Source: Acidobacterium sp.
GTDB lineage: Bacteria > Acidobacteriota > Terriglobia > Terriglobales > Acidobacteriaceae
NCBI GenBank assembly: GCA_003152595.1
Contig: PMAM01000345.1
Span: forward strand, 1-42,879
Length of the DNA: 42,879 nt
Direction: 5' to 3'
This document shows, piece after piece, positions 10 through 40,827 of this stretch. The notes under the pieces are model-generated. The model was not told where the DNA came from and ran no database searches. It saw only the letters and a list, made by a program, of their open reading frames with translations. Position numbers and translations under genes: made by a program. The number at the start of each line of letters is the position of its first letter. Positions within the stretch are counted from its first letter, which is position 1.

Positions 10-2268
10 ATGCTCGAAACGAACTACGATGCCGGCATGGCTCGTCAGACGTGGTCCGAGGTCGAGTCGCTGGCAATCCAGAGGCGCCATTATCTACTGG
101 CATCGCGCGCGGTCGGAGAGCAGGGCATTGCAGCATTTTTGCTCGGCGACATCGCAACAGCGAGGAAAGATGTCGAAAAGGCGTGGCTCGTCGCGAAGAT
201 TGACGACCCCGCTGCTCACATCCGGTATGCCAGTATGTATGGCACAGGCCTGGTTGAGCTGCATAAGTACAAAGAGGCAATCGGCCCGCTTGATGAAGCG
301 ATCAAAGTTGCTGCCAAGACACGAAATGTGGCTTATCCCTCGATCGCCGTCAACGCAAAGATCGAGGCGCTCAGCGGTATCGGTCAAAATGACCAGGCGG
401 TGGCACTTGCCGCTGATGCAATGCAGAAGGTTGCCGCTCTACACTTGGCCGGTCATCTGTATGAGCTTTACCAGACACGGGCAAGCGTCTACGAAAAGAT
501 GAACAACTGGAACCAAGCGTTTTCAGATCTCAATCAGGCCGCTCTATATGCAAAGCAGCTCTCGTATTGGCGCGGTCTCACTGAGGCAGATGGACTGTTG
601 GCCGAAGCGTACCTGCACCAGAGAGCGCTGCAGTCAGCTTTGACGGCCATCGACGAAGCTATTGATGCAAACAAAAGAATTCCAGACGAGCTGTACTTCG
701 TACCGAAGAATTTGGCGATCAAGGCAGAGATTCTTGCGCAGCTCGGCAATGTAGAGGCGTCAGATGACCTCTACGAAAAAAGCGCGGACGTGCTCGATGC
801 GCTTCTGAGCAAGGTGCCGACGCCCTCAGTCGAGAGACAGCTTTTGGGCGATCTCAGCAGCGTGTACGCCGGATATTTCGCATCGCTAGGCAAACAGGGA
901 AGAATGACCGATGCTTTTCGCGTAATCGAGCGGGCGCGCGGTCGCGTGGAAGCGCAGGGCCTTTCGCATCATGAACTCGTGATGCCGCACCAGCCGACGG
1001 AGGCTGACTTGCAGTTGACGAAACTCAATCTGCAGTTGCTCGACACGGACGATCCTGCCAAGAGGTCTGGCATTCTCGACGAAATCTACTCCGCAGAACA
1101 GCGACTCACCGGCTCCGTCACCGAAAGCGTTCCAACTCCCATTTCTCTCACGACGCTACAGAAAGACTTGCACCCATCTGAGCTGTTCATCGAATACATT
1201 TTGGATGACCCGGTTTCTTATGTCCTTGCGGTGACAAGCACGACGGTTCATCGCTATGAATTGCCAGCAAGGGCTCAAATTGAACAGGACGCAACGCAGT
1301 ATCGATCCGAAATCGTCAAACAAAAGACCAACATTGCGCTGGCCGAAAGACTGTTTCAGGAATTGCTCGGTCGGATACCGGAATACAGGGAAAAACGTGG
1401 TTTGGTCGTCGTCCCTGACGGTAAGCTTCATCTTCTCCCGTTTTCGGCACTCGCAGATTCCGGGCATTACGTTTTGACATCTCATGTCGTGAGTGTGGCG
1501 CCCTCCGGGACGGTGCTCGACATGCTCCAGCGCCGAATCATTCATACGGTTCACGACGCTCTCCCATACGTGGGAGTGGCCGCGTGGATATCTACACCTC
1601 CGCCGACCACTCTACTTGCCACCATTCGCCGTGCCGTTTCTGGGCCAGAGAAACGAGAACTGGTCCCCCTGCCCGAGAGCCGCAACGAAGTGGAAACTAT
1701 CGCCACTGATCTTCCAAAGCCCAGCACCATTCTCCTCGGCGATCATGCGACGAAAACGGCCTTCTTGCAGCTTCCGCTCAAAGAATATCGGGTTATTCAC
1801 CTAGCCTTGCACGGATACGTCGACCCTGAGTTCCCGGATCGTTCAGCCCTCGTCTTCGCGCCTCGTTCCTCACCCGCGGATGACGGCTTGCTCCAAGTAC
1901 GGGATATTCGGACTCTGCCACTGAACACGGACCTCGTGACGCTTTCAGCGTGCGACACGGGGGTTGGCCCAGTCGGCGAAGAGGGCGTGGCAAACATCGT
2001 GAACGCGTTCATCGAAGCGGGAGCACAGAGTGTTGTTTCGACGCTTTGGGAAATGGAAGACCGTTCGACTGCGCAACTCATGATCGCGTTCTACAGGCAC
2101 CTTAGCCAGAGCGAAGGTAAGGCGGAAGCAATGCGCGAAGCGCAACTCGAGTTGCTGAAGTCTGGAGACCCGCCGTACTTTTGGGCCGGCTTCGAACTTG
2201 ATGGTGAACCAAACGCAACGCTCTTTACTGATTGGAAATCAACTCCCCTGATTAGGAGCGGTCAATGA
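10..2268 (+). CDS. TPR-repeat / CHAT-domain (caspase-like) protease; N-terminus may lie upstream of the window
   Basis: 752-aa ORF; the frame is open back to nt 1. About 450 aa of helical TPR-like repeats are followed by a C-terminal CHAT signature, with His motif HLALHGY and Cys motif LVTLSACDTGVG. The TGA stop overlaps the next gene's ATG (ATGA at 2265-2268). Confidence 0.85.
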   Translation: MLETNYDAGMARQTWSEVESLAIQRRHYLLASRAVGEQGIAAFLLGDIATARKDVEKAWLVAKIDDPAAHIRYASMYGTGLVELHKYKEAIGPLDEAIKVAAKTRNVAYPSIAVNAKIEALSGIGQNDQAVALAADAMQKVAALHLAGHLYELYQTRASVYEKMNNWNQAFSDLNQAALYAKQLSYWRGLTEADGLLAEAYLHQRALQSALTAIDEAIDANKRIPDELYFVPKNLAIKAEILAQLGNVEASDDLYEKSADVLDALLSKVPTPSVERQLLGDLSSVYAGYFASLGKQGRMTDAFRVIERARGRVEAQGLSHHELVMPHQPTEADLQLTKLNLQLLDTDDPAKRSGILDEIYSAEQRLTGSVTESVPTPISLTTLQKDLHPSELFIEYILDDPVSYVLAVTSTTVHRYELPARAQIEQDATQYRSEIVKQKTNIALAERLFQELLGRIPEYREKRGLVVVPDGKLHLLPFSALADSGHYVLTSHVVSVAPSGTVLDMLQRRIIHTVHDALPYVGVAAWISTPPPTTLLATIRRAVSGPEKRELVPLPESRNEVETIATDLPKPSTILLGDHATKTAFLQLPLKEYRVIHLALHGYVDPEFPDRSALVFAPRSSPADDGLLQVRDIRTLPLNTDLVTLSACDTGVGPVGEEGVANIVNAFIEAGAQSVVSTLWEMEDRSTAQLMIAFYRHLSQSEGKAEAMREAQLELLKSGDPPYFWAGFELDGEPNATLFTDWKSTPLIRSGQ

Positions 2269-3566
2269 CAACGACTGTAGCCGCGGTTGCGCAAGTGCCG
2301 GTTGAACTCTCGGCTGAAGACAAGCACACCATTCTTCAAAATGTACTCTCGGTCCTGCGAAAACGGTTCTACTCGCCAGAAAGGCTGAACAGCGACTGGC
2401 TGGCGGCAGTGGACAGGCATCGGCCATCGATTGAATCTGCCTCCAGCGCCGACGCCTTCGAGCAGGCGGTGAGCGATCTCCTGGCGGAGTTGCACACCTC
2501 ACATCTGGGCTTCTTTCATCGAAACGCTCGCAGAGCATCGAGCCGCGCCGCACTCAGTGCCACCTACTTGGCGGACGACACGGATTATGGGAAGCGCTGG
2601 ATCTTCCAGGATGTCCACTCAGGCGGTGCGGCTGCAATTGCCGACATCGAGCCGGGCAACATCCTCCTCACCGTGGACGACCACGAAATCGTTCCCCCGG
2701 AGCACCCCGTCTTTCCGATGGGAAAGCAGACCAGAGTTGAACTCATCGACAATCAGGGGAAGCGGCGGAGCGTGATGGTCGATGTAGCTCGACCCAAAGG
2801 AAAGAAGCTCCATTTCATCGAACCGACCCTGGTAGAGGCCAGCCGGCTCGGAGATGGGCTCGGCTACCTGAAGATCGCCATGCTCCCCGGCATGGTTGGA
2901 GTTGTCGTCGCGAATCAGATAACGAGCGCGGTCCAATCTCTGGGGAGCGTCGATCGATTGATTATCGATCTCCGTGGGAATACCGGCGGTGGAGTTGGGG
3001 CGCTACGCGTGATGAGTCTCCTGATCTCAGAAAAAGTCCCTGTCGGTTTCGCTCTCGATAAGCGCCGCGCGAGTGCAAATCTCGAACAAGACAGACAAGG
3101 GTTCCCGCGGTTCTCACGGATTCCATCGAACACCAAGTTGCTCTGGCCCTTGGCCCTGCGATTTGCTCCAGCAATGCTCGCGAAAAAGCCAGTGGTGCTT
3201 GAAACTGAAGGTCTGGGACCTCAACCTTTCCACGGACGCGTTATGCTGCTGGTTGATCGGCACACAGGGAGTGCAGCGGAAATGATCGTCGCATTCGCAC
3301 GCGAGAACAACCTCGCAACGGTTGTAGGCGAACGGACGGCTGGCCGCCTCCTATCGGCCACATCCGTCAACGTGGGTAACGGATTCCGTCTTGCCTTACC
3401 AACCGGCGCATACCATACGTGGAAAGGCGCGATTCTCGAAGGAACGCCAATTGAGCCGGATCAATTCGCCGAATTCGATTGGCGCAGTCGGCGGGGCGGC
3501 TACGATCGACAACTCGACTACGCAATCGAATCGCTTCGACGGAAATCGACCGCCAGAGCCAGTTAA
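2265..3566 (+). CDS. S41 family (C-terminal processing / tail-specific type) serine peptidase
   Basis: 433-aa ORF, start/stop-coupled to the CHAT gene. S41-type motifs DLRGNTGGG and LLVDRHTGSAAEMIV are present. The N-terminus MTTTVAAVAQVPVELSAEDKH has no obvious signal peptide. Confidence 0.85.
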   Translation: MTTTVAAVAQVPVELSAEDKHTILQNVLSVLRKRFYSPERLNSDWLAAVDRHRPSIESASSADAFEQAVSDLLAELHTSHLGFFHRNARRASSRAALSATYLADDTDYGKRWIFQDVHSGGAAAIADIEPGNILLTVDDHEIVPPEHPVFPMGKQTRVELIDNQGKRRSVMVDVARPKGKKLHFIEPTLVEASRLGDGLGYLKIAMLPGMVGVVVANQITSAVQSLGSVDRLIIDLRGNTGGGVGALRVMSLLISEKVPVGFALDKRRASANLEQDRQGFPRFSRIPSNTKLLWPLALRFAPAMLAKKPVVLETEGLGPQPFHGRVMLLVDRHTGSAAEMIVAFARENNLATVVGERTAGRLLSATSVNVGNGFRLALPTGAYHTWKGAILEGTPIEPDQFAEFDWRSRRGGYDRQLDYAIESLRRKSTARAS

Positions 3567-8454: not shown

Positions 8455-9799
<1,345 letters not shown>

Positions 9800-30516: not shown

Positions 30517-32070
30517 CTAGACGTAGAACTTGAGTGGTTGCTTTTCCGCATCACGAGCTGATCCCATGGTCAACACATTGCCCACCTTGTTCGCAAATCG
30601 TATGGTGACCGGGAGTCCGTCGTTGTAATTGCAAGCGTTGTAGTTGATCTTTGTGAGACCCATGATGTCGGCTAGGACCGTGCGAATGTGAGGGCGCCTT
30701 CCCGTGCTACGCAGAACGGTGATCGACAGCGGGTTCGGTGTTTCAGGGCCGATATAGGTATCAAGCCTGGGCACAAAACCGTTCGTCCACAGCAGGGCGT
30801 TGCGGTCGTTGAGGATAATGGCGGTTCCGCGCAATACCGGATAATCACCGTCGCGGAACAACTTGGACTCGCCGTGCGTCTCCTTGATGCGGACGCCAAC
30901 GACATTGGTACCTTTCGGCGCGGCCTTCTTGAAGGCTTTCCATTCTTCCTCGTTGAAGGTCGTTCGTCCGTGTATAAAGAATTCTTTCGGCGGCGCGCCG
31001 TGCTTTTCCTTGAATGTTTCGAGCACCTTGGCTATCAGACTTTGTGCCTCTTTTGGCTGAAGGTGAAATTCATAGTCCCCGGTTTTCCATGGGCCGTTTG
31101 CGCCCCGAAATACAACGGCGTCACTCTCATTGAGAAACATTTGCGCCGCGCAACAAGCGTGTTCCTGCGGGTCGTTCGGAATCATCTTGAAGACAAGCCC
31201 GATATAGCAAACGCCCGGTCTGACGTGGGCCAGCTTCCACGGCGGTTCCGGTTGAGTCTTGTAGTAAAGCCCGGTCGCCAGATTCCACGCCACCGTTGCA
31301 GGGTCTTGTAACCCTCGGATCGGATAGCCCGCGCTGTTCAGGAATCTGTCGGGTGCCAGTGTCGTCTCGCGGATAAGTTGCGAGGTGTGTCCGAGTTTGA
31401 GCAACCGCGCCTTCACCTGGCGGTGAAAATCCGGCACGTCGTCGAAGATATCTTCGGCGGTCTGGTCAATGACCCCCTGAAACAGCGGAAGGTCGGTTTT
31501 TTCTTTCTGGTTCTTGCCGAATTCACCCTTTGTCAGTTCGAGGCCGGTGCGTCGCGCCAGCGGCTTGCAACGTTGGAAGATGATCTCGGGGAGAATGAAC
31601 ATCCAGACATCGACCGTCTTTTCCTCGTTCTTGTCATAGCGTTCGATTTCACCCACGTAGAGGTCTACCGCCTTGCGTACCGCCTCGTGCTGGTTCGCCG
31701 TGTGCGTGGCGTCGTCGAGCGTCTTGTAGTCGACCGTGCGCTGGACAAACTCGCCGGGACTGATCATGATGCTGAACGCTTCTTCCAGTCCCGGAAAATT
31801 CGAAAGGTGCAGTCTGTGTTCTTTGTCGGTCTTCTTGCGCGGCGGCACGGGAACGAAACCGCCAAGCGCAATGGCCCAGGTCCGAAAATACGAAAGCCCG
31901 TCCTTCGTTCCTATGACTCCGACGGAAACCTCACGCGGACGCGTGGGACCACTGTGCGGCCCGTAGAGGAAAAGCCCGTCCTTCGGATGGTCGCTGGTCT
32001 GCCCGTGGCCGAAAGACAATTCCGGCTCGTCGATATGGATGACGTTGAGGTTTTTTTTAGGCAGTTCCAT
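30517..32070 (-). CDS. Short prokaryotic Argonaute (MID-PIWI only, catalytically inactive type) of a SPARTA system
   Basis: 517 aa from the ATG at 32070 ([24 protein letters not shown]...), overlapping the upstream stop by 14 nt. From memory, it is collinear with characterised SPARTA pAgos: [96 protein letters not shown]-terminal KFYV. The canonical DEDX positions read IGLVF and IHGRT, so the Asp residues are absent. There is no N/PAZ region. Confidence 0.93.
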
Positions 32071-33472
32071 CGGTCTCACCCTCTGAGTTGAACAGGCCCA
32101 GCGTGGAGTCGTCGGTTTCCTCCGCGTCGTCTTCCATCCTCTCCGGCAACACGGTCGTGACCGGCGACGTGAACGCGACCGGCCTCGAATCAAGGGTGAT
32201 GGCGCAAGCGGCGGAGAGAGGCACGGTAATATGCGAACACTCTCCCGAGAGCAGTTCAAGATAAGCCATGAGGCGGCCATGCCATGTGTTATTGCGCCAG
32301 CCCTTGCAGATGGTCCGTCGTAAACGATGCTGTATTGCGCTGTCCCCGATGACGGAACCGGCTCGATTGCCCGCGGCGAGTTCAGCGAACAACACGCGGG
32401 CTTTCAGCTTGAAATGCAGATACGGCCAGAAGGCCGGTGTTGCTGACATGCCATATTGCCACACGCGGCCACCGGCGGCGTTGCGCAGCATGGAGGACCG
32501 GCGCTTGCCTTGACGGCCCCAGGAAATCTTCTTGCCCAACGGCGTCTGCGCATCGCCGATGTGGAACGCCGTCTGCGTCGCAAAAAGGTACTCGTACAAC
32601 CCCTTTGAGCGGCAGAAATTTTCCCATGCGCGGCGGAACATGGAGAACACAAGGTTTTTTGCCTCGCGTGGCTCTATGTCCGGTGATTGACCGCCGCAAT
32701 CAATGAAGTCAAGCAACCTATGTTCGGAATGGATTTCAAACGGGGCAACCTCGGCGAAGTCGCGCGCAACTTCCTCCGACGACGCGAATGAAAAGAAACC
32801 GCGCTGGTAGACCTCGGCGGGTAGCGTGCTTTCACGGCACGTTTGCTCCATCAATTCGAGGTTGATTGGCCCCGGAGGAGAGTAGTAACGAACTGTCTCG
32901 GGGAGGCTGGCGACGCGAAGCCAGTTGGACGTTAGGACCTCCGGCTTTTTCTCGACTTTGATCGCCAGCCGCCTTCGATAGTTCTCCCAATTCGGATTGA
33001 TCGCGGGAGTGGGCGTGCGCGGCACGTTCTGTTTTTCGAAGGTGTCGAGCAGGTCATGCAGACCCCTGGCCCAGCTACCCAGAAAATCGACCCATTGAAG
33101 TTCGCCAATGCCGAACAGCTTTTTGAATACCTCAAGGCGAAGCGGAATGACGAATCGCTTGTCTTTCAACTCCTTCGCAACATCCGAAGCGATTCCGATT
33201 TCCTCTTGGACACCGGGCTTGTCTAGGGTAGCGTCGCGGCAACACAGGAGCATCTTCACGGCTTGACTCTGCAACGTCCCCGTAATCTCCCTTCGCCAGC
33301 GATCACCCGCTTCAAGGGAAAGAATGTCCGCAAAAACGATGTACCCTGCGGCCTCGAGGCGCGGAGCGAGCCACAGCACAAAGTCATCGTCCTCGGGGGT
33401 AGCCTTGCTGATGAACACGAGATTTCGCGTTTTTGGGTTTGCGCTCTCATCCGCGTTGTGGGAGGTTGACAT
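32057..33472 (-). CDS. TIR-APAZ protein (NADase effector partner of short pAgo; SPARTA)
   Basis: 471-aa ORF starting at an ATG. N-terminal TIR domain ([43 protein letters not shown]...[10 protein letters not shown], with a candidate catalytic Glu). APAZ-like remainder with conserved blocks [35 protein letters not shown] and [20 protein letters not shown], and an acidic C-tail. Confidence 0.93.
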
Positions 33473-33995: not shown

Positions 33996-35369
33996 TCAGT
34001 TCCATTGGCCACCCTCCCCCTCACAGGTCCAGACTCCGTATCTTTCTCCGATGGACGGGCCCATCTTTCTGAGCAACTCACATTCTTCCACGAGAGTTTC
34101 CGGTGAGAGCAGTTCGTAAACCAGGCGGGCGATGTCCGCGGGAGGAAGTTGGCAGACGAACCCCTCTTTCCGCAGGATGAACGAAGCCTCATTTTGTGTC
34201 GCGGCCATGGCTTCCTTGCCCGCGTGATCGACCGCCCAGCCCGCCGCGTAGAAATACCCGAGCACCTGAAGGAGGTTGATAGATGTGGTGTAGGCCTTGG
34301 CTCCAATCACCAGGTCAACGCAGGTTCGATCGTCCAGCGGAAAGACGGTGAGAGGCGCGGCATTGGGCACGAACTGAATGATGTCGATCGAAGAGGCGGT
34401 AATTACCAGCTCATCCCCCCACCCTTCGCGGGCGCCGATCACCTCCTTTCTTTTTGCGGCCTGCTCGGAGAAATCCCGCAGACTGGAAAAATCCGCGCAC
34501 TCGACATAGCAGTGCGGCGCAAGCAACGCTGCACTCCACCCCTTGGCCCCGGCCTCTGCCAAAAGGTCGCGCAGCCCTCCCAGGTGATTCTTCGGGGTCA
34601 CGGGCAAGACTCCGGAGATCACGGATTTTCCCTCCACGACGCCACTTCCCGAAGTTAAGACACCGGCAGCGTCGCGCAGAATCTGTTTTTGGCGAATGAG
34701 GCGCCGGCTTTTCGCGTTCCCGCTCTTCACCTCAATCAACTCCACATCCCCATTGTCATGGATGGCAGTGACGTCCCCGATGGCGATCGAATTGGTCACC
34801 GCATTGAAGATGGCTCTTCGGTTCGCCGAGTCGTTTATGGCCGCCCAGTGGCCCAACTCGGCGACGGTGCCCTCGGCGAGAATGGTCTGCTTCACCGGGT
34901 GGGAGCAAAGGATGCGCGTCGTGAACCGATCATAGTCGAAGGCCCGCCACGCCATGCCATCCCCGATTTGCCGTATGGCATTGGCAATCAAACCATGCAG
35001 TGTGATCTGCGACTGGATGAACTCCGCGGCACGATCGGGAAGATTAGCTTCGGCCGCGAGCTTCTCCTTGTAGCTCTTGATCGATTTCTCCTGAACCACG
35101 ATGTCTTCCAGCATATGAAGCTGCAGTTTGGAGAGAGCCAGCTTGTTGCTCTTCCGCTTTCGGCTGATCGACAGATAGCCCTCAAGGATATCGGGATACT
35201 CCGAGGTGGCAAGACGAACCATGCCTGCGGCTTCATGCGCCTTGCCCGGGTTGCCTCGGTTCACGCTCCATGAAAAGGCGCGCCGATACTTATTGCGCAA
35301 GCGTTCCGGATCGGACGCAGATTTATCTTTCTTCGGGCTCATTGGCGCATTATAGGGCGACGAGCGCAC
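33996..35369 (-). CDS. Hypothetical protein with PD-(D/E)xK nuclease-like motif
   Basis: 457-aa ORF (GTG at 35369; in-frame ATG at 35342 gives MSPKKDK...). The central segment NSIAIGDVTAIHDNGDVELIEVKSGN fits the D...(D/E)xK restriction-endonuclease-fold signature. Coiled-coil-like N-region. No family recognised. Confidence 0.55.
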   Translation of the reverse strand: MRSSPYNAPMSPKKDKSASDPERLRNKYRRAFSWSVNRGNPGKAHEAAGMVRLATSEYPDILEGYLSISRKRKSNKLALSKLQLHMLEDIVVQEKSIKSYKEKLAAEANLPDRAAEFIQSQITLHGLIANAIRQIGDGMAWRAFDYDRFTTRILCSHPVKQTILAEGTVAELGHWAAINDSANRRAIFNAVTNSIAIGDVTAIHDNGDVELIEVKSGNAKSRRLIRQKQILRDAAGVLTSGSGVVEGKSVISGVLPVTPKNHLGGLRDLLAEAGAKGWSAALLAPHCYVECADFSSLRDFSEQAAKRKEVIGAREGWGDELVITASSIDIIQFVPNAAPLTVFPLDDRTCVDLVIGAKAYTTSINLLQVLGYFYAAGWAVDHAGKEAMAATQNEASFILRKEGFVCQLPPADIARLVYELLSPETLVEECELLRKMGPSIGERYGVWTCEGEGGQWN

Positions 35370-35455: not shown

Positions 35456-36271
35456 TCACCGGCCTCTTGGGTTTCTGGCAGAGCATGAATCGCAGAAATC
35501 GCGCTTGAAATCCTCGACAATCGTGATCACATCAACGGACTGTGCACTGGACACATACTTGAGTTTTTCACAAATCACTTTTCGCATGGGCGACACACTG
35601 AAGGCAGTCCCCGGATCAATCGTCTGAGTAAGGTCCTCCCAGAGCTGAAGGTGTTGGCACCAGCGGCATCGCTCCTGGGCGATGAATCGCAGAGTGCGCA
35701 TGTATCCAAGGAGTTTCTTGGGATGGGCTGGCGGAGAGCCGATAATTTTCACCAAGTGCTGCGCCATTCGGGACAATTCTTCGTCCGATTGGTTTGCATG
35801 AAGTTGATCTCGATGCTGACGATCAGACTTGGCGATATCCTGCTCGTAGCGCATCAATAGTGTTCTGTTTTCGAGGACCTCGGCAGCTTCCTCCGCGATT
35901 GGCTTGAATCCCATTGCGTCCGCTTCTGGGTAGAGCATTTCCGCTGCCGCTTTGGCACCGTCAATATCGCCTCGAACCTCCAGAAATCGAATCTTCAGTT
36001 TATCGAGCGTCAGTCGGCCCTCAACCAGACCGCTAGGGCGTGAGAGTCGGTAAGCCTCGTTGAAGATATTGTCAATCGACGCTTCTACCGGCTCAGGCAC
36101 TTTGTACGATTGGTGGCTATTGATCGCTTCCATTCGCTTTTCAAATAGCCCGCCGATTCGTACGTAAAGCCTGACGATGAGAGCCTGGACAATGAGAATC
36201 GGATGCCTTAAATCGTAAGCCTCTAGCAGTGCCTCGTCAGCCTGTTGTTCCCACCCTGATTGATTGCGCAC
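35456..36271 (-). CDS. Helical-repeat protein with C-terminal Cys cluster; possibly the C-terminal part of the upstream DUF4365-like gene
   Basis: 271-aa ORF from GTG at 36271. Its frame is open up to 36331 (…SEFLYPSDTKRAKQNLQDAV-RNQSGWEQQ…) and overlaps the upstream ORF by 49 nt. The C-terminus carries CRWC...CEKL...CDSC (zinc-ribbon-like). Confidence 0.5.
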   Translation of the reverse strand: MRNQSGWEQQADEALLEAYDLRHPILIVQALIVRLYVRIGGLFEKRMEAINSHQSYKVPEPVEASIDNIFNEAYRLSRPSGLVEGRLTLDKLKIRFLEVRGDIDGAKAAAEMLYPEADAMGFKPIAEEAAEVLENRTLLMRYEQDIAKSDRQHRDQLHANQSDEELSRMAQHLVKIIGSPPAHPKKLLGYMRTLRFIAQERCRWCQHLQLWEDLTQTIDPGTAFSVSPMRKVICEKLKYVSSAQSVDVITIVEDFKRDFCDSCSARNPRGR

Positions 36272-37488
36272 AGCATCTTGGAGATTCTGTTTGGCCCTCT
36301 TCGTATCGCTCGGATACAGGAACTCGGAATTTCAGCGTGAAAGAGCGTCTCGTTGATTTGGATGTTTGCCTGCATTCCTTCCAGAAAGAGCAGGAGCAGC
36401 TTCGCATCCAGCTTGATTCCTCGATGCGCATTGGGGTGAACAAGGATTTCCGTTGTCACGTCGCGCAACCTCTCCAAAATGGCCGCACGAGTATCGCCGT
36501 CCTTCTCCGTAAGGTATTGGTGATGGAGTGCATCTTGACGTGCCTCAAGCGCTTCAAGTCCCTCCAGCGCCCGCGAACGCGCCAAAAGGCGCTGTTGGTA
36601 GGTTTCCGCGTTGATGAGTCCGATATGGAACTCGGCCCCGTCTCGGAGGGTGATAAGAAACGATTGGTCCCGCGCATTGAGTTCACTTTTGCGCGCCAAT
36701 GCCCGTCGTATATGCCCAAGCGCCGCATAGTGGTCGCCTCGGGTAAATTCGGCATACCCTGCGGTTAGTTGAATCCGCGCCGTCTCCCGGATTTCCAGAT
36801 CAAGAAGCCGCATGAGGTCAAGCACTTCCACGGGGAAACCGGCAGCCACAATGGTGGCTCCGCTGGCAAATAACACATCCCGCGCTTGAGCTGGATCGGT
36901 GATGCTCAGCGATTCGCTGTCAATGCTGAGGACAACGGTTTCGCCGCCGGTGGCCTTGGCCAGCGAGTCATGGATTTGGCGATGGAGACGCCCTTCCTTC
37001 ATGATTCGGGCGTGAATGCCCGGGAGTGACGCTTGCGAGAAGCGTTCGCCAAAATTCAACGCGATCCATTGCTGCTCTCGCCAGGCCGGATTCTCTTCAT
37101 TCAATCGGCGGCTTTCATCCTGAGCCCAAGTGAACCAGAACTCATCCTTCTCAAGGTCGTAGAGGATATAGATTGGCGCAGTCCCGTTTAAGAGATAATT
37201 CAGATTGGCTGTGCGGACGGAATGCGAAAACGACCCGTCGCGGAGAGGAGCGAGGCGGCTGGCTGCCTTCATCTGCACCTGGCCGCGAAAGTTGGTCATT
37301 CGACGGTCCATTTTGAGTTCAAATGAGCCGTCCAGACCATAGTCTTCGACCCGTTCATCGCGGAAGATGATTTCGTCCTGCCCCTTTAGGAGCGCATTGA
37401 GCGCCTTGATGCTCTCGCGTTGGAGTTCAGCCTTTTCGTCCGAGACGGGGAGTGGACCAAGATCCGGGCTGTCGTCGCCAAAACTCAC
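36223..37488 (-). CDS. DUF4365-like (PD-(D/E)xK-type) N-terminal domain protein with helical C-region
   Basis: 421-aa ORF (GTG start). The N-terminal block EDYGLDGSFELK...GQVQMKA...VRTANLNYLLNGTAPIYILYDLEKDEFWFTW matches my recollection of the DUF4365 pattern. The remainder is alpha-helical repeat-like. The last 35 or so residues (IPSSCIRAIRRGPNRISKMLCAINQGGNNRLTRHC) look like out-of-frame sequence. Confidence 0.6.
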   Translation of the reverse strand: MSFGDDSPDLGPLPVSDEKAELQRESIKALNALLKGQDEIIFRDERVEDYGLDGSFELKMDRRMTNFRGQVQMKAASRLAPLRDGSFSHSVRTANLNYLLNGTAPIYILYDLEKDEFWFTWAQDESRRLNEENPAWREQQWIALNFGERFSQASLPGIHARIMKEGRLHRQIHDSLAKATGGETVVLSIDSESLSITDPAQARDVLFASGATIVAAGFPVEVLDLMRLLDLEIRETARIQLTAGYAEFTRGDHYAALGHIRRALARKSELNARDQSFLITLRDGAEFHIGLINAETYQQRLLARSRALEGLEALEARQDALHHQYLTEKDGDTRAAILERLRDVTTEILVHPNAHRGIKLDAKLLLLFLEGMQANIQINETLFHAEIPSSCIRAIRRGPNRISKMLCAINQGGNNRLTRHC

Positions 37489-37714: not shown

Positions 37715-38311
37715 TTGCTCTATACGGCTGAAAATGACCCAGAGCTCGGAACTTGGCTTCGCCACAACGCCGACAGCAAGAGTCCGTTCATTCGCACACT
37801 GGTCGAAGCGGCGAAGCTGGCTTCTCCCGGCGAATATACCGCCCTGCAACGAGCCCTTCGCCGCTTTCGGGCGTCCGATCCCGAACCCGACTCTTCCGTT
37901 CACACCCTGGTTACGGATGCCTACAAGGTGGTGTTCAACGAGCAGAAAGAACTCGATCATCTCGACGTCGCCTTCACTCGATTCAACGCTTCCGTCTTTG
38001 ACAACGCCTTCCCGGAGACGAAAATTCGCTATGCCAGTTCGATTGTGAGCCAAGAGGAGCCCGGCTGGCCCATCGGTTTGTTCGCCCTGCCAGATGACCC
38101 TGTCACTTACCGCGCGCCAAGCCAGTTTCGTTTGGACGTTCCCCACATCTTCATCGCCGAGAAGCTGAGCGGCGTAGCTCCCGTCGACGAATGGGTCCTC
38201 CTACACGAGATGTGTCATTACAAGGTGCCGAACCACGGACCAGATTTCATTGCCCAAGTCAAACAGGCATTGGATGCGACCGGCTGGCGGACACTCATCG
38301 GCAGCTTCTGA
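37715..38311 (+). CDS. SprT-like zinc metalloprotease-domain protein
   Basis: 198-aa ORF (TTG start, AAGGGG upstream). HExxH motif in the context DEWVLLHEMCHYKVPNHGPDF, typical of SprT-like domains. Confidence 0.55.
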   Translation: MLYTAENDPELGTWLRHNADSKSPFIRTLVEAAKLASPGEYTALQRALRRFRASDPEPDSSVHTLVTDAYKVVFNEQKELDHLDVAFTRFNASVFDNAFPETKIRYASSIVSQEEPGWPIGLFALPDDPVTYRAPSQFRLDVPHIFIAEKLSGVAPVDEWVLLHEMCHYKVPNHGPDFIAQVKQALDATGWRTLIGSF

Positions 38312-38390
38312 TCGTCCGTGGGAGTCACAGCGCTTGTAAACCCGTGCGCTATCCTGGTCTTTCCCCCAACTATAGACGCCGGAGGCCGGA

Positions 38391-39155
38391 GTGCCCGCCA
38401 GGAACAAGTACCTTCGCCGTTACACACATCTTGAGTCCTTGCGACACATGCTTTGCACGAAGTCCCTCACCCTGCTCGACTATCGCAAGTGGAAGGACAA
38501 GAACGACTCGTACTTTCTCAAGATGTACCAGGAAGAGCGGAAGCGGAAGTCTCTCCTCGTGCTCTGCCTCACGAGTGCTTCGGAGCGATTCCATCTGTGG
38601 CATGTGTTCGGGCCGAAAAAGGAAAGGCGTTCGCTTCTGAGTGCAGGTCAGCCATTCGGATGTGGTCCCTATAACGGCTCTTCACCCTTAGCCAAAATCG
38701 GAGTTCGGATTCGATTCGACCGCTCCAAGCTGATTGAAGCCCTCGCCAACTATCGGGGAATGGTTCGATGGGACGCCGTTGACTATCTAACTCACGCCCA
38801 GCTGGAGGCGCTCGCGACCGAGCGGAACGCAGTCGGTGCCATCGAGCGGTTGCCCTTTATCAAGCGCTATGGCTTTCGCGATGAACTGGAGTTCCGCATC
38901 CTCTTTGAATCAACTAAACGGCAGCTTCCGACTATCGAGATTCCCATTCCCATCGCGTGCATCAACAGAATCATCTTTAGCTACAAACTCAACTATGGAG
39001 ACTACAGAGCAATCCAAGATGCATTGCGTTCAATGGATGGCTGCGCGGGCCTGGATATCCGGCGCTCCAATCTCACCGAAAGCAAGACATGGAAGACCGC
39101 CGGGCAGGAAGTTGTCCTGGCGGCAAGACAAGCAGTAGCGATTAAGAAAAGATGA
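38391..39155 (+). CDS. DUF2971-like hypothetical protein
   Basis: 254-aa ORF (GTG with a GGAGG SD). The N-terminal YLRRYTHLESLRHMLCTKSLTLLDYRKWKDKNDSYF and the later FIKRYGFRDELEFRILF resemble the DUF2971 pattern as I recall it. Confidence 0.45.
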   Translation: MPARNKYLRRYTHLESLRHMLCTKSLTLLDYRKWKDKNDSYFLKMYQEERKRKSLLVLCLTSASERFHLWHVFGPKKERRSLLSAGQPFGCGPYNGSSPLAKIGVRIRFDRSKLIEALANYRGMVRWDAVDYLTHAQLEALATERNAVGAIERLPFIKRYGFRDELEFRILFESTKRQLPTIEIPIPIACINRIIFSYKLNYGDYRAIQDALRSMDGCAGLDIRRSNLTESKTWKTAGQEVVLAARQAVAIKKR

Positions 39156-39795: not shown

Positions 39796-40827
39796 TTAAG
39801 CCACTGCTTTGGCCACCAACTCTTCGGCCGGTACGAAGTCCTGTTTCCTGCGGTCCACCGCGAGCATGTATGCCACCAGCTTTCTGGCTATCGCCATAGT
39901 GGCCCGATTCTTGTTCCCTCGCTGGATTTCCTTCTCCCGGAGCAGGGCCAGCTCGTGGGAGTACCGGGGCGCCAGCTTGGCGGCTTCCACCAGCACGTGC
40001 TGGATGTGCTTGTTCCTCTGCTTGGAAATCGGCGTGCGCATCACCTTGTCGGCAGAAGTCTTCTCAGCGCCGCATAGTCCGCAGTAGCTGATGGCTTCCT
40101 TCACCGATGGGAAGCGGGTGTAGTCTCCGATCTCCAGGGCCCAGGTCAGCGCGGTGATGGGGCCGACTCCGGGGATCGTCCTCAGCCGTCTCAGCCGCTC
40201 CGACAGCAGCGGATCCCGTTCCAGGGAACTGATCAGCGCACGATCCAGTCGCTGTCCCCGCAGGATGTGTTCGCGGCCAAGCCGAAGCAGGGGCCGGATA
40301 CTGTCGCTGATCTCCTCGTTGGTCGAAAACAGTTCAGTGAAGTAACCCATCTTGTGCAGTCGCTGCTTGTCATAGCTGACCCCACTTTCCATGAGCAGCC
40401 CCGATATACGGTTCTTCATCTGCACCGTCTGCCTTACCACCAGGTGCCGATAGCGCAACGTCCGGCGCCGGTCCCGGATCTCGGTCGAAGCCATGTGGCA
40501 CTCGGGCAGAAAGTCGCACCGCAGGCAGTCGGCGATCTTGCCGGCATCGATCCGGTCGTTCTTCTTCTTGGACGCGGCGATGGCCCGGAGCATCAGCGGA
40601 TGGGCCACCTTCACCTTCTCCGCATGCGGAAGCAGGTAATCGTAGATCCAGCCGGTGAAGATCGTCGCTTCCATGGCCATCATCCGGGGTTGCGGTAACG
40701 TCTGGATCCAGGCATCCAGTTCGCGCCGGGTCGATCCGATCTTGCCCTCCCGGTGCACATGACCAGCTGCATCCTTCACGCAATAGCTGATCGTCTTCTT
40801 GTGAACATCCAGTCCGATGTAATACAT
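39796..40827 (-). CDS. IS110 family transposase
   Basis: 343-aa ORF with the hallmark N-terminus MYYIGLDVHKKTISYCVKD (DEDD/RuvC-like domain) and a C-terminal Transposase_20-like region (LRTIPGVGPITALTWALEIGDYTRFPS...SYCGLCGAEKTSADK). Confidence 0.92.
   Translation of the reverse strand: MYYIGLDVHKKTISYCVKDAAGHVHREGKIGSTRRELDAWIQTLPQPRMMAMEATIFTGWIYDYLLPHAEKVKVAHPLMLRAIAASKKKNDRIDAGKIADCLRCDFLPECHMASTEIRDRRRTLRYRHLVVRQTVQMKNRISGLLMESGVSYDKQRLHKMGYFTELFSTNEEISDSIRPLLRLGREHILRGQRLDRALISSLERDPLLSERLRRLRTIPGVGPITALTWALEIGDYTRFPSVKEAISYCGLCGAEKTSADKVMRTPISKQRNKHIQHVLVEAAKLAPRYSHELALLREKEIQRGNKNRATMAIARKLVAYMLAVDRRKQDFVPAEELVAKAVA

Follow-up and report, generated by a model that had tools for sequence, protein, structure and literature searches.

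The DREN domain of SPARDA is a collateral nuclease of the DUF4365 family. In NbaSPARDA, collateral nuclease activity is lost in the D41A and Q60A mutants and reduced in K62A; on its own, the DREN domain is an inactive monomer that becomes active on tetramerisation in a filament (PMC12205087). The motif DxGxD…QxK is needed for the toxicity of another DUF4365 protein, the toxin EAT16 (PMC11297309). Here we analyzed a stretch of 42,879 nucleotides from Acidobacterium sp. (contig PMAM01000345.1; the whole stretch is called the window below), which carries at 35456..37488, on the minus strand, a gene with a head of this type that is spread over two overlapping open reading frames (ORFs). We found that the two frames are one 677-residue gene with one base missing. 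With a probability of roughly 80%, we read it as a single gene of a large uncharacterised family, disabled recently by the real loss of one base in codon 388.

One gene in two reading frames

The upstream frame, ORF A, encodes 421 aa from a GTG start (36223..37488, minus strand) and comprises family residues 1-387, an out-of-frame tail of 34 residues and a stop. An earlier note on this DNA had recognized a DUF4365-type block at the beginning of this frame. The three sequence blocks it named, EDYGLDGSFELK, GQVQMKA and PIYILYDLEKDEFWFTW, are all present in ORF A, and the domain matched Pfam PF14280 over aa 24-160 with 45.6 bits (gathering cut-off 24.3) and an E value of 9.6e-12. Homology of ORF A to the family ends after I387. 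The last 34 residues (PSSCIRAI…TRHC) are out of frame, in agreement with the suspicion that some 35 terminal residues are frame-shifted junk; this tail, PSSCIRAIRRGPNRISKMLCAINQGGNNRLTRHC, followed by the stop (36223..36327, minus strand), has no similarity to homologues past residue 387.

The second ORF lies in the −1 frame. It begins to be open at 36331, directly behind a TGA (36332-36334), and reaches a stop at 35456-35458, holding about 290 further helical residues. Its earliest possible start is a GTG at 36271, which would give a product of 271 aa; this GTG corresponds to residue 407 and is the sole start codon in the first 50 codons of the frame. No Shine-Dalgarno-like sequence was found upstream of it, and the second ORF gave no Pfam match. 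A promoter and terminator scan around the gene returned nothing exceeding shuffled expectation. Every element that the earlier note had described is real and lies where it had been placed, including the −1 frame open from 36331, its 271 more residues and its CxxC...CxxC end, all on the minus strand.

We joined frame A through …LFHAEI to frame B, the −1 frame, from SEFLYPS…, and used the resulting 677-aa protein as query. The search matched 71 proteins, among which about 60 single-protein homologues cover 98-100% of the query with 44-94% identity; their most frequent length is exactly 677 aa. When 1.84 billion cluster representatives were searched exhaustively with a profile, 1544 matches were obtained at E ≤ 1e-3 and 470 clusters (50% identity), mostly of 665-690 aa, at E ≤ 1e-30; the best 150 profile matches are nearly all 665-690 aa long and align from about position 5 to 676. 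At the DNA level, in 40 genome loci, tblastn covered residues 1-675 without interruption in most of the full-length matches. Reference genomes that carry the family belong to Acidobacteriota (Terriglobia, Pyrinomonadaceae), Planctomycetota, Myxococcota, a cyanobacterium, Armatimonadota and others, and Sorangium sp. So ce315 (L036), a cultured carrier, offers a tractable source of a family member; its copy, as calculated from the range of the locus, occupies NZ_CP150328 positions 11244174-11246165. Because the homologues are encoded by single ORFs, most often of 677 aa, the two overlapping frames are one gene. Thus, the expectation that a −1 change would fuse the frames into a protein of about 680 aa was borne out, and the comparison with homologues suggested at the time returned mostly single uninterrupted proteins of about 677 aa, not two genes.

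The lesion was located by DNA alignment with two related contigs, L001 (96% identical) and L002 (87% identical). The window is one base short in or beside Arg codon 388 (36323..36327, minus strand), reading ATT CCGAG TTC where L001 reads ATT CGG GAT TTC and L002 reads ATT CGG GAG TTC. In the protein alignment, homologues read …ETLF(H/Y)AEI-R-EFLYPSDTK…, and the window reads AEI|PSS in frame A and NS|EFLYPS in frame B, so that frame B resumes the family match from E389, where the match of frame A ends at I387. A single deletion would account for the lesion if the immediate ancestor had CGC for Arg 388; otherwise, a deletion and a substitution would be needed. The position proposed earlier, a single −1 event near 36325-36331, was essentially right, with the missing base within 36323-36327.

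At least 23 public contigs carry the 421-aa product in identical form. Four of these, from different sample accessions and assembly pipelines, were fetched and compared with the window over 6-7 kb. L006 (ENA ERZ27254140, a k119 contig name) and L008 (ENA ERZ27254069), which have MEGAHIT-style contig names (k119, k141) and belong to two sample accessions, are 100% identical to the window over this length, as is L007, from the Logan assembly of run SRR23247709. The fourth, L009 (ERZ28656341, a scaffold with the project-style name WOOD18-1), is 99.93% identical, and all 4 differences lie within about 30 bases of its contig ends. Since the frameshifted product recurs on contigs of different samples and pipelines, the base is truly missing in a clonal population found across several samples.

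Nuclease head, helical body and cysteine tail

The DUF4365/DREN-type PD-(D/E)xK nuclease domain is predicted at aa 24-160 (37009..37419, minus strand), and PF14280 is matched by all 55 aligned homologues. On the same strand, its motif DxGxD…QxK is made up of D49, G51, D53 (37330-37332), Q72 (37273-37275) and K74 (37267-37269). In a profile (hidden Markov model)-to-sequence alignment, D53, Q72 and K74 fall on D41, Q60 and K62 of NbaSPARDA, and the three residues are invariant in 55/55 aligned homologues. For the structural search, we used the AlphaFold2 model of P0001, an 87%-identical homologue (mean predicted local distance difference test score, pLDDT, 86.7). When the head (aa ~18-150) was compared with the PDB using Foldseek, the top 11 matches were all SPARDA DREN-APAZ chains (9qcc, 9vx6, 9jt2, 9jsz, 9qbp) with a probability of 1.0, about 155 aligned columns for most, and root-mean-square deviations of 3.2-4.1 Å for the best five. 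As judged from profile and fold, the head is a bona fide DUF4365/DREN domain with a complete predicted D-Q-K catalytic set, and the assignment of the N-terminal block to DUF4365 made in the earlier note held on both counts, with a Pfam score above the cut-off and a match to the SPARDA DREN fold.

Beyond the head, the P0001 model is all-helical over aa 190-610 (about 420 residues), and residue 388 lies inside a helix formed by residues 356-391. The first half of this TPR-like alpha-solenoid, aa 190-387, is encoded in frame A (36328..36921, minus strand), and the second half, aa 389-610, in the −1 frame (35660..36325, minus strand). Foldseek matched the body to the TPR domains of LGN/Pins, APC/C, OGT and Rap with E values of about 0.01-0.06 and low TM scores (0.16-0.31), and the Pfam TPR models gave one weak TPR_12 match in one of the 55 members. 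There was also a profile match to PDB chain 3anw_A (E = 1e-4) over the helical region 326-428, which is a short helical stretch matching an uncharacterised protein. The TPR-like helices noticed earlier therefore stand as a long helical repeat region, but the TPR models themselves hardly match it, and "TPR-like solenoid" is the furthest label that the model and the matches allow.

The C-terminal cysteine module covers aa 608-677 (35459..35668, minus strand) and has the arrangement C608-x2-C611, H613, C640, C666-x2-C669. The reconstructed protein has only five cysteines (608, 611, 640, 666 and 669), all of them in this tail. C611, C640, C666 and C669 are invariant in the aligned homologues and C608 is usually present; W610, R612 and H613 are nearly invariant. 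A model of the last 134 aa of the window's own protein reached a pLDDT of 87.2. It had no significant match in the PDB (best E 0.46) and none among viral models (BFVD), where the best was a Lar-type restriction alleviation zinc-ribbon protein (probability 0.87, E 0.26). The module is probably a zinc-binding domain of unassigned fold. The zinc ribbon of the earlier note is plausible only, with four invariant cysteines in favor and no significant fold match to support the assignment.

Curated models gave little more on the rest of the protein. In Pfam and NCBIfam, none matches the roughly 500 residues after the head; NCBIfam holds nothing for the DUF4365-solenoid-Cys family or for three neighbouring genes, and the PADLOC models match the head domain only, none spanning the whole protein.

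Taken together, the intact 677-aa protein would be composed of an N-terminal DREN/DUF4365 nuclease, a TPR-like alpha-solenoid of about 420 residues and a small four-cysteine module. With neither an NTPase nor an Argonaute available, sensing and self-association could fall only to the solenoid and the cysteine module, which would serve as sensor and scaffold. Binding of an invader-derived trigger (protein or nucleic acid) would drive self-association, which would bring the DREN heads into the oligomer needed for activity, and the assembled heads would then cleave DNA non-specifically and abort the infection. We infer a head activated by oligomerisation because the isolated DREN domain of SPARDA is inactive as a monomer and is switched on by tetramerisation, the assembly in SPARDA being a D2 tetramer; the defence role and zinc binding are likewise proposals. 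We speculated, at somewhat less than even odds, that the intact family may represent a new single-protein class of abortive infection, in which DREN is switched on by nucleotide-independent oligomerisation of a TPR-like sensor with a new zinc module, and not by an Argonaute filament or a STAND ATPase. If intact members prove immune, this would be a third way of triggering a DREN nuclease. A bolder variant is that the window's split allele might itself be functional as a two-piece version.

Competing readings and the fate of this copy

Among the alternatives, the one that survives best, although we regard it as unlikely, is that the gene is not immune and encodes a nuclease for DNA processing or mobile-element maintenance with a protein-interaction scaffold. 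Distant homologues lie within integrative conjugative elements, several of them beside type IV secretion genes and integrases; the neighbours include many housekeeping genes, with ordinary metabolic genes among them, and the whole protein is covered by no defence-database model. However, in the literature searched, the characterised DUF4365 domains act as effectors of toxicity or immunity (SPARDA, the EAT16 toxin and Divona). The window copy and its close relatives are located among SPARTA, PDC-S31-like, toxin-antitoxin, AbiE-like and TIR genes, and the distant homologues beside PIN/VapB and HicB toxin-antitoxin genes, AbiE-like pairs, TIR genes and integrases. In addition, the patchy spread over phyla, the variable context and the frequent disruption are typical of defence genes.

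We also looked for a conserved partner. All-vs-all clustering of the ORFs up to 4 kb on either side of 33 distant loci placed no family in more than 4 loci, and the sole 4-locus cluster overlaps the gene start on the opposite strand and is probably spurious. Similarly, among 135 neighbour ORFs compared with PADLOC and Pfam, no family was found in more than 4 members, and the defence matches were scattered among housekeeping genes, which is suggestive though no test of enrichment. As no neighbour is conserved, the family behaves as a single-gene unit, a self-contained, mobile and often disrupted accessory gene, which fits a defence role without proving it.

A second alternative concerns the break itself and supposes that the allele is a functional split, with the 421-aa head and the tail of about 271 aa made as separate proteins that reassemble or act as two components. 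Both ORFs are long and undamaged and both are predicted by gene callers, and a few family fragments from the profile search start or end near residues 390-410 (P0211, P0120, P0240). This reading is nevertheless improbable, since the break falls inside helix 356-391 of a continuous solenoid in the P0001 model, where there is no domain boundary, and the only start in frame B, GTG 36271 at residue 407, lies within the next helix and has no Shine-Dalgarno-like sequence. Such a split would also lose residues 388-406 and append 34 junk residues to the head. Moreover, hundreds of family clusters retain one ORF, and the other truncated members are broken at scattered positions by different lesions.

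The interrupted copies illustrate this scatter. L010, on a contig of long-read style whose name suggests 2× coverage, carries one additional C within a CCCC run (about residue 393). In L034, the family alignment is lost after residue 371 and a clearly out-of-frame junk tail follows beyond about residue 430, and in L038 the N-terminal part is displaced by about 1.3 kb and lies in another frame. We considered a recurrent breakpoint at 388-410, given that the positions in the window (388), L010 (~393) and P0211 (~394) are close, and rejected it; the proximity was treated as chance because the two lesions seen at the DNA level differ and other truncations scatter over residues 200-600.

L001, the closest in-frame relative, carries a 1-nt insertion near the C-terminus of its copy of the 677-aa gene. 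On this contig (ENA ERZ25039592 contig_12592), many genes are fragmented (AAA, Helicase_C, MTaX1 and methyltransferase pieces of 80-180 aa), and its copy of the 457-aa gene that neighbours the family gene in the window has two frame changes. L001 looks like an indel-rich long-read assembly, and its breaks are not to be taken as biology.

Recoding, that is, a programmed −1 ribosomal frameshift or transcriptional slippage producing the full-length protein as a regulatory device, is very improbable. The shift is −1, the downstream frame is whole with all conserved residues, and the allele persists in several samples; a recoded full-length product would contain the junction peptide …LFHAEIPEFLYPS…. 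However, the whole overlap at 36223-36334 is free of X XXY YYZ heptamers and of homopolymers of ≥5. Reading the sequence directly, the TGA just upstream in the −1 frame limits a slip to CCG/AGT, where tRNA re-pairing would be poor. The break falls within a solenoid helix, homologues, including those of 94% and 87% identity, are in frame at codon 388, and all frameshift contigs belong to the same clone, so that evolutionary maintenance is not evidenced. An error of sequencing or assembly hiding an intact 677-codon gene is just as improbable: although the deletion sits at a short G run (GGG in relatives) and two related contigs with long-read-style names (L001 and L010) have single-base indels of their own elsewhere in the gene, a three-base run is atypical for Illumina indels, and the identical frameshifted product stands on at least 23 contigs, the four fetched ones (MEGAHIT-style, Logan and another scaffold) being 99.9-100% identical to the window. 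Of the four explanations left side by side in the earlier note, recent pseudogenisation fits best; sequencing error can in effect be excluded, and a programmed shift or two genuinely overlapping genes are unsupported.

We then assessed the age of the inactivation. In the reconstructed window protein, the catalytic D53, Q72 and K74 and all five cysteines are intact. Compared with 55 homologues, it departs at 4 columns that are ≥90% conserved (V52L, A212T, D293N and R612Q), and intact homologues put through this test have 0-6 of them. When L002 served as outgroup and the change at codon 388, part of the lesion itself, was excluded, the window branch had 20 non-synonymous and 15 synonymous changes, and the L001 branch had 13 and 19 (Fisher p = 0.22); the changes on the window branch are spread evenly before and after the break. 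The event appears recent because damaging changes are not in significant excess and neither the catalytic residues nor the cysteines have been lost.

As for its consequences, the deletion ends the frame inside a solenoid helix and leaves at most a 421-aa product with the nuclease head, half of the solenoid and 34 junk residues. The sensor half lacks a good start signal and is uncoupled from the head, so that the copy is most likely non-functional. A truncated head would lack the means of activation, which may explain why the allele is tolerated.

Several points weigh against inactivation of an immune gene as we read it. The branch difference points towards relaxation but is not significant. 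The N-terminal product retains the complete predicted nuclease domain and could keep some activity, and the two halves could in principle be made separately. The deletion is known here from assembled contigs alone, and the frameshift contigs are essentially one clone, so that their recurrence informs the reality of the deletion and not selection on the allele. Finally, the defence role is deduced solely from domain content and neighbourhood, and many neighbours of the distant homologues are housekeeping genes. On balance, we prefer recent inactivation of one gene by a one-base deletion, and the appropriate annotation for the two overlapping ORFs is a single frameshifted pseudogene rather than two hypothetical proteins or a case of recoding.

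Defence island and comparison with known systems

The window looks like chromosomal DNA from an Acidobacteria-like organism and encodes TonB-type outer-membrane barrels, FG-GAP/ASPIC proteins and glycoside hydrolases. The frameshifted gene lies in an island of about 30.5-40.8 kb, in the order SPARTA pair, 457-aa gene, frameshifted gene, YgjP-like gene, PDC-S31-like gene and IS110 transposase. The SPARTA pair, a short prokaryotic Argonaute (pAgo) and a TIR-APAZ gene (30517-33472, minus strand), is a complete system with two uninterrupted frames. The short pAgo ORF (30517-32280, minus strand) matches PADLOC pAgo_I with an E value of 2.7e-212; as the match begins at ORF residue 78, the true start is probably near 32050. 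The TIR-APAZ gene matches Aga_TIR-PNTD1-PNTD2 (E = 4.6e-173) and also Pfam TIR_2. In this defence island, one gene decays while the adjacent SPARTA pair keeps uninterrupted frames.

Directly downstream of the frameshifted gene is the 457-aa gene (33996-35369, minus strand), for which Pfam, PADLOC and NCBIfam gave no match. Its family is small (27 matches) and has invariant D199…E213-V-K215, a PD-(D/E)xK-looking pattern. In L002-L005, the 677-aa gene is intact and the 457-aa neighbour (3188-4552 in L002) is stopped exactly at K215 (ELIEV*). The window reverses this pattern, its 457-aa gene being intact and its 677-aa gene broken, a curious reciprocal inactivation. As a functional partner, the 457-aa gene was rejected, for it co-occurs in close relatives only, and distant members have no DUF4365 neighbour; the pairing is probably mere local synteny.

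On the other side lies a divergently transcribed pair on the plus strand (37715-39155), encoding a 198-aa YgjP-like and a 254-aa PDC-S31-like protein. The former has a YgjP-like/SprT-like metallopeptidase motif near its C-terminus, the latter matches the PADLOC candidate PDC-S31 (E = 8.8e-14), and the pair also adjoins the gene in the 96%-identical relative L001. An IS110-family transposase (39796-40827, minus strand; DEDD_Tnp_IS110 and Transposase_20) marks the island border.

Outside the island, a 752-aa CHAT protein with N-terminal TPRs (CHAT E = 8.4e-62) is encoded at the far end of the window, its gene overlapping that of a 433-aa S41 peptidase by 4 bases (10-3566, plus strand); the two may be another conflict-system pair. 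A tyrosine recombinase is located at 8534-9799 on the minus strand (Phage_integrase, E = 1.3e-6), and ARAGORN found no tRNA gene across the whole window.

How does the family relate to described systems? The resemblance to STAND/Avs proteins raised in the earlier note holds as a loose analogy, an N-terminal nuclease effector followed by helical repeats that may sense a trigger, in a single-gene unit found in variable, island-like contexts. Unlike those proteins, the family has no defining NTPase module, and any oligomerisation would be nucleotide-independent. The earlier note saw no P-loop NTPase, and this proved correct: the reconstructed protein contains no Walker A motif, and none of the 55 members has an NTPase Pfam match (NACHT, NB-ARC or AAA). 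STAND/Avs membership was rejected for lack of an NTPase, the model being an all-helical repeat over aa 190-610; the nearest characterised relative of the head is SPARDA DREN.

Proteins that join DUF4365 to canonical TPRs, such as P0069 (Agrobacterium sp. CCNWLW71, 647 aa), share the head, a following repeat solenoid and a similar total length. However, only the N-terminal 20-30% or so of the query aligns with them, at about 30% identity, and many Pfam TPR models match those proteins whereas essentially none match the window family. Divona, a defence system from a Vibrio integron cassette, and EAT16, a toxin of an extracellular contractile injection system, also begin with DUF4365, have DxGxD…QxK and act as toxic or defensive modules. 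According to the published descriptions, Divona has a C-terminal crr6 domain and EAT16 an unrelated second domain, and neither is similar to the family beyond the head.

In the literature searched on DUF4365 and on DREN with TPR, we found no description of this architecture. The window gene is a pseudogenised member of an existing but unstudied family, and the frameshift itself is unremarkable; the interest lies in the family, a large and very length-conserved one without a functional name in the libraries and sources searched, and a moderately interesting uncharacterised defence candidate.

The closest comparison is with the SPARDA DREN-APAZ proteins (NbaSPARDA, XauSPARDA; PDB 9jt2, 9jsz, 9qcc, 9vx6). 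The head is of the same Pfam family and the same PD-(D/E)xK fold, its catalytic D/Q/K residues align with theirs and are invariant in the family, and the effector probably also needs oligomerisation. The differences lie outside the head. The family protein has no APAZ domain, its head being fused to a 420-residue helical solenoid and a cysteine module, and the PADLOC model Aga_REase-PNTD1-PNTD2 covers aa 41-128 only, equal to profile positions 29-117 of 429. Nor does it have a dedicated Argonaute partner: the nearby pAgo pairs with TIR-APAZ, distant homologues have no nearby pAgo, and tblastn with the window pAgo gave no match in 40 related genome loci. SPARDA membership was rejected, given that APAZ domain and pAgo partner are both missing. 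In this family, the collateral nuclease DREN known from SPARDA is built into a different protein framework.

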